A stretch of 64,000 nt of DNA from Octopus vulgaris (lineage: Eukaryota): contig OX597816.1 of the NCBI GenBank assembly GCA_951406725.2, positions 76,384,001 to 76,448,000 of the forward strand, read 5' to 3'. The notes beneath the pieces are model-generated. The model had not been told where the DNA came from. It made no database searches and saw nothing but the letters and a program-made list of their open reading frames with translations. The translations under genes and the position numbers were made by a program. The first letter of the stretch is position 1; every line of letters begins with the position of its first letter. Positions 13,934 through 63,222 of the stretch are shown piece by piece.

Positions 13934-14028
13934 CCTTTATTCTCGACATATGTTTCGAAGGCTGCATATTCCTAATTCCGAAGGAATAAGGAGTACATTA
14001 TGCAGATTTCTCATCAGGAAAATCAAGG
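13934..14028 (-). ncRNA. Type-I hammerhead ribozyme (inverted pLTR copy)
   Basis: Reverse complement of 14956-15050, with TCATCAG at 14011-14017. Confidence 0.8.
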
Positions 14029-14059
14029 AACTTATGTCGACATCAAAATGCACAAAAAT

Positions 14060-14402
14060 CTCTTCTGGAACCGATGTCTACTTCTACATTGGCGCAACCT
14101 CTTCTAAATTAGCCCAAAGGATCTCCAACCATTATTCCACTTTCAGAGATAAGAGAAAGCAACACAGCACGGGGCTAAGCAAATTAGTCTGGCGTCTGAA
14201 GAACAATAACACTACGTACAAGCTCGAATGGTCCATTTTATCGGTGTCCTTCCCGTTTGATAAAGGCAGAAAATTTTGTGGCATCTGTAATTCCGAACTT
14301 TTTCATATTTTGTTCGACAAAGTCCCTTTAATAAATACAATCGTCGAAAGATCCTACAGGTGTTTACACTGGAAAAGACACACCTTTCACTCATATAAAT
14401 AG
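14060..14402 (+). pseudogene. Penelope-type GIY-YIG endonuclease fragment
   Basis: YIG motif, conserved R..H and CxxC..E. The first ~37 aa of the listed ORF derive from the inverted pLTR. Confidence 0.85.
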
Positions 14403-14955
14403 TGACTAATATAGATAACCCCTCGATTTCCCAAAACATTTTTGCTATATTTCACCCCAATAGTCAAAAAGATTTTCTTATATTCCCAATTACTACTATC
14501 CATTCTTGCGTTGCCTCTCACCTCGCCCGATTCTTTCTCCCTTTCGTTATCTACTTTCTTTTCTCTACAGTAAACATAATCGAACACACAGACACAGACC
14601 TCTCACCTCACAGCTGTCAGTTTTCTGACATCTACCCATCCACAAACACAATCACGCATTCAGACACACACATACACACATTAAGACAGTTATATACAGT
14701 CACACACACAGACACTCATTCATAAAAGAAATCATTTAAACCCACCATTCTTTTGACCTGCACTCTCTCACCTTACTATTCTTATGCCTCCCTCCTCCTA
14801 CTTCGTTTGAACCCTTGAACCTTTAGAACCTTCTAGATTCTTCTACATTCAGCCACTCTGACGTCACTTCTTATAAAGAGACACTCATTATCGCCATGGG
14901 CTCCTTGAGAGCGGTCAGCTAAAATTTTTTGTGCATTTTGATGTCGACATAAGTT

Positions 14956-15050
14956 CCTTGATTTTCCTGATGAGAAATCTGCATAATGTAATCCTTATTC
15001 CTTCGGAATTAGGAATATGCAGCCTTCGAAACATATGTCGAGAATAAAGG
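14956..15050 (+). ncRNA. Type-I hammerhead ribozyme in PLE pseudo-LTR
   Basis: Stem I ccttgattttc/gagaataaagg; CUGAUGA 14967-14973; long stem II (gaa/ttc, ctgcata/tatgcag, attcc/ggaat); GAAA 15028-15031; palindromic stem III ACAUAUGU; GUC site ending at 15039. Confidence 0.85.
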
Positions 15051-15249
15051 ATATTTGTTAACTAGTCGTTCAACTCAAATTCTTTCATATACTTATAATT
15101 TTTTATATATATATATATATATATATATATATATATATATATATATATATATATATATATATATAATATTAATTATTAGTTATTATTTAATTGAACGCGA
15201 AGTCATTCAAATCAGGATTCGGACTGCTGTTCTCACTGGAATTAATTGA

Positions 15250-60160: not shown

Positions 60161-60867
60161 AAAGACATATAATGTAATTAAATTAAAACAGATGGACACA
60201 TTAGTATAATTTTACCTAAAATCTCCAAGAAGGTAAGAAGCTAGACAAAAAACATGCCGTCTTCACTTCAGCTTAGAAGCTACTCTATCTGTATTTAATT
60301 GACTAAAGTCAAACTGGTAAACATTTTGTGAAAGCTGAAAGTGCACACATATCGTACAAAGATTGAAATTACTGACACGTACAGAAAGAAACTCATATTT
60401 CTTTAGAGAAACATAGTTGTTCGAAAGAAGATAATGTCCTAATAAAATATTCGGGAGTCGAGGAATATGCAATTTTTTGCTGACGTCCTTTTCTTCCCCA
60501 AAATGATGAGTTTGTGAATACAATCAAAACCACAATATTATTTCATTTTCATAGTAAATTTCAAGTATTTTGTTCCAGAAATCATTTATTTTTCAAAAGC
60601 AAATAACTTGTGAAAGAAGCAAACTATCAACAAGATGTATCGGAGTAAACTATTTATCATGTGTGAGTCAGGGAGGGAATTTCAATGTCATGAATCCAAT
60701 TAACTGTCAAATTTCTCAAATCACTTCATAAACAAAGACAACCAAAACAATGTGATAAATACGTCCCCTCCACCTGGATATATATATATATATATATATA
60801 TATATATATATATATATATATATATATATATATATATATATATATATATATATATATATATATATAT

Positions 60868-61100
60868 CCACGATAGATCGTTAGCCACAACACACACTTG
60901 TTTTTTCTGTGTCCCTTTCTGTAGAAGAGCGTGGGCTCGAAACGTAAGAGACTTTTCTATTCCTGAGCGTTATACTAATACATCTGTTTGTTTTGTACAC
61001 CACCTGTCTTCGTATTTTGTTCTTTTCGTATATATATATATATATATGTTTCTGAAACATATGTACCGCTAAATCCTTTGCATCCTGTTTTTCTTTTGAT
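60868..61100 (+). mobile_element. Two short PLE pLTR-like fragments between (TA)n tracts, with hammerhead remnants
   Basis: CUGUAGAA-gagc-gtgg-gctc-GAAA-CG-UA at 60919-60946; GAAA-CAUAUG-UA at 61054-61065, with the fragment ending cttttgat. Confidence 0.55.
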
Positions 61101-61516
61101 AAATATACCCTATCACCTACACCACTATATATATATATATATATATATATATATATATATATATATATATCTTATATATATATATATAAATATATATATA
61201 TATATATATAAATATATATATATATATATATATATATATATATATATATATATACACACACACATACATATACATACACGCGTGTACGCGTGCGTACGCA
61301 CACACAGTTTCCCTACTTCACTCAGGATGTGATAGAAGACATTTATCCAAGGTGCAGTGCAGTGGTATCGAACTCCGAAGGAATTAACTTTAATCATACG
61401 GCCATGTCCCAGGACATCGTAAACTTATAGTAAATGATTTGTAAATAATGTTCCAGGCTACGAGGCAGTGAGAATTATCATATCTCACATAATAGTATAC
61501 TTAATATATATTAACA

Positions 61517-61927
61517 CTAGCAGTATATCCCGGCGTTGTTCGAGTTTGTTTTGAAAAGTAGAAATTTTGCATTATGTACCTTGTTATTCTCTTTAAGTGA
61601 ACATTTTTCTGGTTGAAATACACCGAAAAATGGCGACTCAGCCGTCAAGAAATCGTAAAAAATAGGGATTTTGAGAGAAAAAAAAGCACCTTTTTTATGT
61701 AAATAATTTTTAGTCTTAACACGGTCCGATTTGAATTTTTTTTCTTCTACGGAATGAAGAGCAAGCCTTCTTCTATCATACTCTCAATTTTGGCCAACTT
61801 GTGCCGCAGGGTCTCGGAGGAGATAGTGTTAGTTGAAGGCTATCAAACCTGCAACACACACACACACACACACACACACACACACACACACACACACATA
61901 CAGACAACTTCAGTTTTATATATAAAA
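61517..61927 (-). mobile_element. Non-autonomous Helitron sharing termini with the 40.2-41.2 kb dimer
   Basis: Minus strand reads tatatataaaactgaagttgtctg...cgaacaacgccgggatatactgCTAG|T. Confidence 0.8.
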
Positions 61928-62852
61928 ATTATTATTATTATTATTGAAAGCAATGAATTGGAATAATCGTTAGAGTGTATTACCATAACCCTTTAAGCAC
62001 TAAGTTCAAGTCTCGATTGATTTCATTGATCCTTCGTAGTTCGATACATGTATGTAATAAGATTTCTCTTTCCAAAATGCGATTCAAGTGGCATTGCATA
62101 GCCATGACTAAAGAAGTCACGTGCTCGGAGTCACACGCAGTCGGATAGAACCTGGAATGGTGCGTTCACAAAACGACCTTCTTAGCCATACATTGGTATG
62201 TTATATGATTTATCTTCACACATTAATATGATATATGATATATCTATACAATAAATGAAACGTATCATTCAAAATTGCAATGTGTCAGGTAATTATTATG
62301 TTTAAATTCCCTTTAGTGCTATAAAACACGATTGGCAACATCACTCATATCTCAGCAATAAAAGCTTTTATTTATTTCCTTGTTTAGGAGATTTTTAGCA
62401 ATCTAGATTATATAATATTAAAACAAAATAATTGGATAGATTTATTAATGGAAAATCGAATATACAAAAAAAAAGACATAAATATATCTTTAAATGTTGA
62501 AGACAATAATGTTTAATATATTCTTGTACTGTAACATTTGATGTCACTCTTTTATTACTTATATGGAAAGAAAAGATTGGTAAAAGTACAGAATAGGAAG
62601 ACAGAGACTTGGGCGATAGGGAAAATCAATGATATATTGACAGATATAAAGATAAATATGTATTTCGTTGTCTGCTACAGTTTTTGTTGTTAAAATTGTA
62701 TTGATCAATTGGGCATCAAATTGTATTATGAAATAATACAAATTCATGCTATATATATATATATATATATATATATATATATATATATATATATATATAT
62801 ATATATATATATATATATATATATATATATATATATATATATATATATATAT

Positions 62853-63222
62853 CATCAATAATAATAAAGGGTAAAATTAATTTATTAATTAATAATGAAT
62901 TATTTTACCAAGTAGTTCGGTATGTTAAAAGAAATATTTAAAATCTTGAAATACTGTGCTGAAGAGCGAGAACGATGGAATGGAATTGTGATTTTGCATT
63001 TTTCACATCTACCTAACTCCGAAACGCGTCTACAGTTAATCGAAGCAGAGTGAATTCGTTACTTTTTCTCTTTGCCTACGTGGGTTGTTGAGTATTGTTG
63101 TCGGGGGAGTTTCCTTATGGTAGAGAAATAGCTAGTTTTAACTGCTATTTCTAAATCTCGGTATGTGGTGAAGCAAGTTTTTTGCTGAACCCTAATTATA
63201 ATTATACTCATAATTATAAAAA
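62853..63222 (+). mobile_element. PLE pseudo-LTR with inverted terminal segment, between (TA)n tracts
   Basis: 62855-62935 and 63125-63220 match the two halves of 48246-48445 in opposite orientations; contains a hammerhead. Confidence 0.75.
62953..63036 (+). ncRNA. Type-I hammerhead ribozyme
   Basis: actgtg-CUGAAGA (62959-62965)-G...C-GAAA (63021-63024)-CGCG-UC-tacagt; palindromic stem III ACGCGU. Confidence 0.8.

Follow-up and report, generated by a model that had tools for sequence, protein, structure and literature searches.

Minimal hammerhead ribozyme motifs at the 3' ends of TA-associated Penelope-like and retrozyme-like elements in Octopus vulgaris

Hammerhead ribozyme motifs were analyzed in a 64,000-nt stretch of the Octopus vulgaris genome (GenBank assembly GCA_951406725.2, contig OX597816.1, positions 76,384,001 to 76,448,000), the whole of which is referred to as the window. 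The motifs are very probably minimal type I hammerheads situated at the 3' ends of seven element families that end at TA tracts, two of which run into the reverse transcriptase (RT)-endonuclease genes of Penelope-like elements (PLEs) and three of which consist of non-coding units in tandem, probably copied through those enzymes. Elements of this kind are mostly known; what is new are the octopus members of the PLE and retrozyme hammerheads and an abundant core variant in one family, designated F. The census itself is expected for a PLE-rich invertebrate. The initial annotation of this DNA had proposed minimal type I hammerheads of the PLE or retrozyme type in many TA-associated retroelement families, and in this it was right. 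Its view of a non-coding system invisible to open reading frame (ORF) annotation fits families C, D and G, which match no PLE protein, but not family A, with a GIY-YIG gene in the window, nor family F, with an RT-endonuclease gene in its longer copies.

Hammerhead motifs in the window

The window (35% GC, dense in microsatellites) belongs to a host assembly of 2.80 Gb in 227 contigs. It was searched with a descriptor consisting of the box CUGANGA with at most one mismatch, GAAA, a palindromic stem III, H at position 17 and a stem I of at least 5 bp, and 300 block-wise dinucleotide shuffles of the window served as the control. Seven motifs were found as against 0.14 per shuffle (maximum 2), and eight as against 0.44 (maximum 3) when stem I was reduced to at least 4 bp; none of the 300 shuffles reached either count, the enrichment being somewhat flattered by a descriptor built after the motifs were known. 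The reversed window gave no matches.

The eight motifs passing the descriptor were assigned to families A (box 14017, position 17 at 13945, minus strand; box 14967, position 17 at 15039, plus strand), C (34574, 34636, plus), D (35707, 35664, minus; 36034, 36078, plus), E (60154, 60079, minus), F (60919, 60946, plus) and G (62959, 63030, plus). Together with the half-motif at 61054, these make up nine real motifs in seven insertions of seven families (A, C to H), the pairs 13934/14956 and 35657/36027 each representing one insertion with an inverted 5' arm. The eight window segments have no mutual blastn similarity at E<0.01. A further site, 24715..24777 on the plus strand, is a doubtful decayed hammerhead and a singleton: its stem III (ACUU) is not palindromic, it fails the descriptor, and it was dropped as a family member when two genome searches, by DNA and by pattern, returned only the site itself. 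The initial annotation had listed about nine dispersed hammerheads from at least six unrelated families. Eight of its nine motifs pass the descriptor and its half-motif is real, but 24714 is a broken singleton; the number of unrelated families stands, although two of the motif pairs are single insertions.

Could the motifs be chance matches in AT-rich, repetitive DNA? Site 24714 may be one, and a loose descriptor (two mismatches, stem I of 4) found 10 motifs as against 3.8 in shuffles, with 2 of 300 shuffles reaching 10. None did so at the tighter counts, however; the cores recur in family alignments, and the pattern of family F occurs 21,705 times in the genome as against 0 for its reversed control. 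As a general explanation chance has practically no probability left, and it is refuted for every site except 24714. Support independent of the descriptor comes from six of the motifs, which are members of repeated families with the core preserved in the remaining copies.

At the family level, the core C3 U4 G5 A6 N7 G8 A9, G12 A13 A14, A15.1-U16.1 and H17 was found in A, C, D, E, G and H. The core nucleotides are preserved in the family alignments, the changes of C3 in D and of A9 in E being restricted to the copies in the window. No motif has its strands in a rewired order. Stem III is palindromic in eight of the nine listed motifs and in the family of 61054, the exception being 24714, and the predicted self-duplex energies range from -1.7 to -10 kcal/mol. 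The six stem III palindromes first named were correct, and the two proposed cleavage sites, C15039 and C63030, both fall at position 17. Stem pairing had been described as kept, but the base of stem II is imperfectly paired in families C, D, E and G. In the alignments stem II usually opens with an extra base or a mismatch, and its arms reach 44-61 nt in A, C, E, G and H. A strict scan requiring three contiguous stem II pairs recovered only the family A pair and missed most motifs. Among the checks that had been proposed, shuffling and core conservation turned out in favor of the motifs and the covariance-model search did not: in Rfam no hammerhead match reached the gathering score in six loci covering eight of the ten sites whole. 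In a scan of the window no hammerhead was found among the 150 of 267 weak matches listed, which were microsatellite artefacts.

PLEs have been described as carrying minimal hammerheads that belong to many families, number in the thousands and begin stem II with an additional base or a mismatch (PMC4209133), a feature also listed for Hydra PLEs (PMC8557442 supplement). The octopus motifs share with them a palindromic stem III, the extra base between A9 and 10.1, the expectation of cleavage as dimers, and the occurrence of many families per genome, mostly as single truncated copies with some opposite-strand pairs 100-700 bp apart. They differ in their stem II arms of 44-61 nt and, in family F, in U6, the published core variant being U3-A8. 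A recent study reports 31 recently active Penelope-like families in O. vulgaris (PMC13282606); in the available part of that paper neither "hammerhead" nor "ribozyme" occurs.

Fifteen descriptor matches were found in 222 kb of other stretches, away from the targeted sites, where about 1.5 are expected from the shuffle rate of the window. This non-random sample suggests a genome-wide number of motifs of the order of 10^5, the window being about twice as dense in motifs as the sampled sequence. At least eight further hammerhead families were noticed in the flanks of loci L173, L199, L039, L043, L141, L227, L238 and L281, with stem III palindromes such as AUUGGACCAAU, ACUGCAGU, ACUAAUUAGU, ACAGCUGU and AUCCGGAU.

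Insertion footprint

The 3' ends of the elements lie at a TA-type (or TC/GA) microsatellite in 29/30 copies of A, 22/24 of C, 9/18 of D, 18/23 of E, 21/25 of F and 17/25 of G, that is in 116 of 145 copies overall as compared with 3.6% of random unique positions. The motifs had been described as lying mostly next to (TA)n; five of the ten are within 200 nt of (TA)8, as against 11% of random unique positions, but the link belongs to the element ends and not to the motif. Inverted 5' arms were identified in 13/30 loci of A, 11/24 of C, 5/19 of D, 6/23 of E and 10/25 of G. In family A the 3' ends fall at +75-87 (10 copies) or +214-225 (20 copies) from GAAA; C and G also have two clusters of 3' ends, about 100 nt apart, and D and E mostly have one. 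The insertion signature of endonuclease-containing (EN+) PLEs, consisting of 5' truncation, an inverted 5' arm, an optional 3' tail and a microsatellite target, is displayed by A, C and G. The PLEs of Craig 2021 and Frangieh 2024 have the same inversion and end traits and an internal-initiation tail; the tails found here are longer than 30-40 bp.

These traits bear on the idea that C, D, E and G are short interspersed element (SINE)-like or retrozyme repeats moved by a long interspersed element (LINE) instead of a PLE. LINE RT remnants are present in the window, and helper LINEs are allowed for by Cervera and de la Pena 2020 (PMC7229834). These families nevertheless have in common with family A a TA junction, an inverted 5' arm and, in C and G, two alternative 3' ends, all of them PLE traits in Craig 2021 and Frangieh 2024, and mobilization by a LINE is regarded as very improbable.

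Family A, a Hydra-type Penelope-like element

The family A insertion begins with an inverted 5' arm (13745..14058, minus strand), which carries a pseudo-long terminal repeat (pLTR) with a hammerhead, predicted to be cut after 13945, and a long 3' tail ending at (TA)n. On the plus strand there follow the 5'-truncated GIY-YIG endonuclease end of a Hydra-type PLE gene (14060..14402) and the 3' untranslated region and pLTR (14403..15103), the latter with the short 3' end at (TA)n and a hammerhead (box 14967, stem III ACAUAUGU) that has a long stem II hairpin and is predicted to be cut after C15039. The inverted arm is 97.7% identical to 14926-15102 and its long tail is common to 20 of 30 copies. 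The gene fragment sits between the two A motifs. The GIY-YIG domain was recognized by Pfam (E=0.0013, 19.5 bits, below the cut-off of 22.6) and by a profile of 33 homologs (iE 3.4e-19).

Family A gave 1233 first-look candidates; the DNA searches scored the best 40 candidates each, and such totals, here and below, are not copy numbers. The family is young, its top copies being 95-99% identical. At locus L167 an inverted pLTR, RT, endonuclease and pLTR follow in this order between TA tracts, with the gene broken by one stop and one frameshift. The L167 protein contains SDKT, RIRWL (the R-W motif) and CGIC..E..N..CLH and is devoid of CCHH, which are marks of Hydra. The RT matches a protein of Octopus sinensis (70% identity over 34% of the query) as well as proteins of Argonauta and O. 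bimaculoides.

Hydra-clade PLEs have in common with family A a C-terminal GIY-YIG without CCHH, the DKT and R-W motifs, CxxC and CxH around E and N, a size of less than about 3 kb, a hammerhead near the 3' end and a (TA)n target. Family A differs in the sequence of its hammerhead and in having no CxCX5C linker at L167 and L028, a linker present in 23 of 26 homologs with endonuclease and in the L172 family described below. Because of this absence it is called Hydra-type and is not filed outright in the clade. Such a system is not new, since the supplement of Craig et al. 2021 (PMC8557442) already lists Hydra-1_Obim of Octopus bimaculoides, with a canonical hammerhead and a (TA)n target.

In place of the zinc-finger linker, L167 (5928-7007) and L028 have a long Asn/Ser-rich stretch, yet 29/30 copies of A end at TA. 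Family A thereby suggests TA targeting without need of the zinc-finger linker that has been proposed to mediate it. An intact 717-aa Hydra-type PLE family with the CxCX5C linker was also observed (L171-L200, e.g. L172, G000:C9:56365454-56368885). It often lies in tandems about 2589 bp apart and returned 23,004 first-look candidates when searched at the protein level. Its hammerhead core (CCGAAGA) is fixed for U4C, which is present in all 26 descriptor matches of this motif within 30 loci.

Family F, a Neptune-type element with an A6U core

The family F copy (60868..61028, plus strand) is the 3' end of a Neptune-type PLE with a minimal hammerhead, CUGUAGA-A-GAGC/GCUC-GAA-ACGU-A, a predicted cut after A60946 and (TA)n on both sides. 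The family gave 2179 first-look candidates. The motif at 60919 had been taken as decayed; instead, its core variant is fixed family-wide. All 28 aligned rows read CUGU-N-GA (with one C3 change and one G8 change), followed by A, GAGC/GCUC, GAA, ACGU and H, so that F lacks the canonical A at position 6. Exact matches in the genome numbered 21,705 with U6, 473 with A6 and 81 with G6, and none of the reversed controls had any.

Among 68 matches chosen by the core, from 60 stretches over the first listed sites on C1, N7 is A/C/G/U in 22/12/9/25 cases and position 17 is A, U or C in 66; this variation at N7 and H17 fixes the register of the motif. An alternative register with UNGAAGA as the box was rejected, as it loses stem I and puts a freely varying base at position 4. 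A sample independent of the core was obtained from 30 hits by the 3' flank alone, four without the region being dropped and 26 kept. U6 is present in 24 of these 26 copies, the other core positions stand at 88-100%, and the majority base accounts for 46% at N7 and 62% at H17.

In four of 68 consecutively listed F copies the sequence continues without a break into an ORF that encodes YIDD, a CX4CXXC linker and a GIY-YIG with internal cysteines. At L238 the linker is CSRPRCHTC and is accompanied by IYCISCSLCHSLYIG; the CX2-5CXXC linker, the GIY/YIG cysteines and the C-terminal endonuclease are all present. Locus L160 (91% identity to the window copy) carries this endonuclease tail as well, some 790 nt upstream and at 92% identity. 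From the copies running into the RT-endonuclease ORF and from the L160 tail, F was therefore identified as the stub of a Neptune-type PLE, of whose gene the 3' half of the RT, and no full-length copy, was recovered. Neptune-clade PLEs (PMC8557442) likewise have an RT, a CX2-5CXXC linker, cysteines inside GIY-YIG and microsatellite targeting; the fixed A6U core of F is the difference.

A midpoint-rooted tree was constructed from 66 rows (a random choice of 40 among the 101 U6 rows of L213-L272, each of the 25 A6 rows, some with 3-nt loops outside the exact-count pattern, and one C6 row). Sixteen A6 rows fall in a sister lineage (99/100), six at the unresolved base of the F lineage, and three are scattered. 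The tree needs five label changes and does not prove a single origin of U6. The endonucleases of L203 and L207, which are basal A6 copies, share only 63-68% identity with that of L238. On these sequences A6 is probably ancestral, and U6 would have been kept across several subfamilies, the last of which has terminal branches near 0.01. That all 473 A6 copies are back-mutations was ruled out by the G6 count of only 81 and by the sister and basal placement of A6 in the tree.

An abundant sister family of F (L005, L006, L018, L027, L168, L177, L272 and others) has the canonical A6 and a 3-nt stem II loop (CUGACGA-A-GAGC-UCC-GCUC); several of its copies carry U4C. In the window, F and H copies lie in series between TA tracts at 60867-61169, which suggests repeated insertion into one TA run.

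No paper on an A6U core was found in a search of the core-variant literature, which yielded A6C and did not cover Lünse 2017 or one Cervera supplement file, either of which may contain U6. The available parts of the Cervera supplement and of the Hydra list (PMC8557442 supplement) hold only A6 cores. The nearest data for U6 are those on A6C, which has low activity in Mg2+ and good activity in Mn2+. The A6C hammerhead of phage Bcep176 (PMC3088659, PMC7151607) likewise has a pyrimidine at position 6 in an otherwise intact core; it occurs there in one copy, whose slow cleavage in Mg2+ is rescued by Mn2+, whereas the putative U6 ribozyme of F is found in at least 21,705 copies.

Families C, D and G, non-coding retrozyme-like units

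Family C (34065..34805, plus strand) is a non-coding element of about 1.2 units of 505 nt, in which 34200-34296 repeats at 34705-34800; it has an inverted 5' segment (34065-34202) and a hammerhead with box 34574 and a predicted cut after C34636. Family D (35501..36282) is an old non-coding element with two divergent arms (boxes 35707, minus, and 36034, plus), C3 being changed in both copies. Family G (62852..63222, plus strand) has a non-coding unit of about 563-601 nt, with an inverted tail (62852-62933), a sense part from 62936, box 62959 and a predicted cut after C63030. First-look candidates numbered 1318 for C, 41 for D (68-87% identity) and 1551 for G. The units have 30-37% GC, their longest ATG ORFs are 43, 48 and 87 aa, and they match none of four PLE protein pieces.

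In 12/24 loci of C, sequence lying downstream of the ribozyme is found again upstream in the same orientation, 470-509 nt away (735 nt in a thirteenth locus); the distance is 563-601 nt in 4/25 loci of G (884 and 1187 nt in two more) and 408-417 nt in 2/19 loci of D. No such recurrence was found in 30 A or 23 E loci, and in F it occurs only as a separate insertion or microsatellite. At L276 two whole G hammerheads lie 574 nt apart, and the sequence separating them matches no PLE protein. Such a pair of successive units with complete hammerheads, termed 'active' by Li et al. 2026, was not found among 24 C or 19 D loci. Copies of C above one unit start +59 to +191 from GAAA or pass through the previous cut site, two loci reaching the previous ribozyme. 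These start points and the sampled copies spanning the cut site point to a circle or an uncut multimer as template.

All families might instead be ends of autonomous PLEs that simply lost their 5' parts, with the units of C, D and G representing pLTR duplications whose gene-bearing copies were unsampled. Only 19-25 loci per family were considered, picked for their resemblance to a short query; copies with a gene are scarce even in F (4/68), and E too has a long upstream region without an ORF. The constant distance at which the upstream part of C repeats its own downstream sequence in half of the loci, two of which extend to the preceding ribozyme, argues against this, as do the closely spaced G ribozymes without PLE protein between them, and we hold it to be improbable. 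Hydra- and Neptune-type protein matches near C, D, E and G loci (L072, L105, L129, L132, L067, L078) were rejected as parts of these elements; they lie downstream, antisense or past an inversion and are regarded as separate insertions. Families C, D and G are likely retrozyme-like repeats copied by PLE enzymes.

Metazoan non-LTR retrozymes have been described with PLEs as candidate helpers (PMC7229834) and, more recently, as PLE derivatives (Li, Clavereau and Pollet 2026, bioRxiv 10.64898/2026.07.22.740005), the available text of the latter naming no mollusc. Like them, C, D and G are non-coding, low-GC units with a type I hammerhead, a tandem organization and a proposed PLE origin or mobilization; unlike them, they occur mostly as dispersed copies of 1-1.2 units with PLE-type inversions and TA junctions. 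The units of C and G (505 and 574 nt) are above the 150-450 bp of PMC7229834 and within the 51-972 bp of the bioRxiv study. PLE-type insertion footprints on retrozyme-like units provide genomic support, in a mollusc, for the proposed mobilization of animal retrozymes by PLEs.

Families E and H

The family E copy (59959..60284, minus strand) is the 3' end of an element whose upstream part is long, AT-rich and non-coding. Its hammerhead has box 60154 and a predicted cut after A60079; A9 is altered in the window copy alone. The family gave 3624 first-look candidates. The upstream region exceeds 2 kb and has internal repeats; three long copies contain no ORF above 72 aa, and the roughly 2.1 kb upstream at L273 have neither an ORF nor a second hammerhead. 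Three near-identical 5' ends had pointed to a defined unit, which was rejected since L273 continues upstream through internal repeats. Family H (61047..61125, plus strand, (TA)n on both sides) is a 5'-truncated copy starting at the GAAA box, and corresponds to the 3' half noted at 61054. Whole motifs of the form GCGG-CUGAAGA...GAAACAUAUGU-A-CCGC were identified at L106 and L271, and one with G12 changed at L140.

Proposed mechanism and catalysis

In the proposed mechanism the PLE RT-endonuclease would nick a TA tract, as published PLE work implies, and reverse transcription would be primed inside the RNA, 75-320 nt past the ribozyme. Copying would run back through the uncut ribozyme and usually stop early or invert, leaving short ribozyme-bearing stubs. 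Two ribozyme copies are predicted to pair via the palindromic stem III and to cut slowly after position 17. Cutting would free unit-length RNA able to circularize, and a circle or uncut multimer would serve as template for the more-than-unit copies of C, D and G. Folding with the core held open gave an intermolecular hammerhead with stem III for A, C and E, the A dimer reaching -42.8 kcal/mol as against -36.4 for two monomers.

Several observations weigh against this account of the elements and their ribozymes. Dimers of the D(+), F and G window copies did not fold in the shape of a hammerhead, and the window copies of D, E and G carry core or stem defects. No cleavage, transcript end or circular RNA was observed. 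None of the upstream repeats of C starts at the cut site, and hence the genome holds no hint of insertion ends being set by cutting. No inverted arm was found in 25 loci of F, no specific PLE was linked to C, D or G, and E was linked to neither a gene nor a unit. Pfam gave no relevant match for the family A RT and none for the F-linked protein, and the clade names Hydra and Neptune are provisional, being taken from motifs and not from a reference tree. Assembled contigs of 4 of 24 listed runs, whose RNA nature was guessed, revealed no joints, start sites or end sites for F and the inverted A arm; this is neutral on cutting, splicing and circles.

Whether PLE hammerheads need to cut is an open question in the field. 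Their function was called unclear by Craig 2021 (PMC8557442), and in Anolis, whose ribozyme cut only in the presence of protein, catalytic mutants were without effect on in vitro insertion and the cut site was not the end of any RNA-seq read (Frangieh 2024, PMC11167929). The elements may thus be as described, with hammerheads that are no longer catalytic and are retained as an RNA handle, whether for the PLE protein or for the pairing of dimers. The Anolis results favor such a handle, as do core changes fixed in successful lineages, namely A6U in F and U4C in 26/26 matches of the 717-aa Hydra-type family. The 26 flank-found F copies, however, vary at N7 and H17 but preserve C3, G5, G8, A9 and G12-A14, the two stems and a cleavable base at position 17, and A6C and U4C variants elsewhere retain low activity (PMC3088659, PMC7151607). 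A pure handle is rather unlikely, though a serious contender, and the motifs are probably still cutting slowly.

The U6 core of F would likely represent a slowed ribozyme, or else a motif kept for pairing or protein binding. Tentatively, and as no better than a possibility, the U6 hammerhead may be a working, throttled or metal-switched ribozyme kept by selection through radiations of a Neptune-type PLE; with U4C in a second family, octopus PLEs might tune ribozyme speed via the uridine turn, and C, D and G might spread as circular RNAs on the same enzymes. If so, at least 21,705 U6 copies escape CUGANGA descriptors. Family F offers a natural paired test of cutting, with U6 copies, basal A6 copies and an A6 sister lineage with the same stems, and makes the role of cutting testable.

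Other repeats in the window

LINE remnants with RT and an APE-like start were observed at 5395-6153, 39154-39558 and 16169-16672 (all minus strand), the first matching Pfam RVT_1 (E=2e-14) and the other two giving no Pfam match. Tc1/mariner transposase remnants are located at 19647-20015 (plus), 29288-29818 (minus) and 42356-42859 (minus); their matches to DDE_3, Transposase_1 and DUF4817 are all below cut-off. Two tandem copies of about 510 bp, 92.6% identical and without a descriptor match, occupy 40206-41235. A very common dispersed repeat split by a TA tract was found at 13034-13184, 18293-18442, 23943-24101, 53382-53543, 58517-58678, 59495-59627 and 63945-64000, with upstream parts at 12510-12669, 53151-53328, 58326-58453 and 63758-63874; it presumably corresponds to an octopus SINE, which it resembles.

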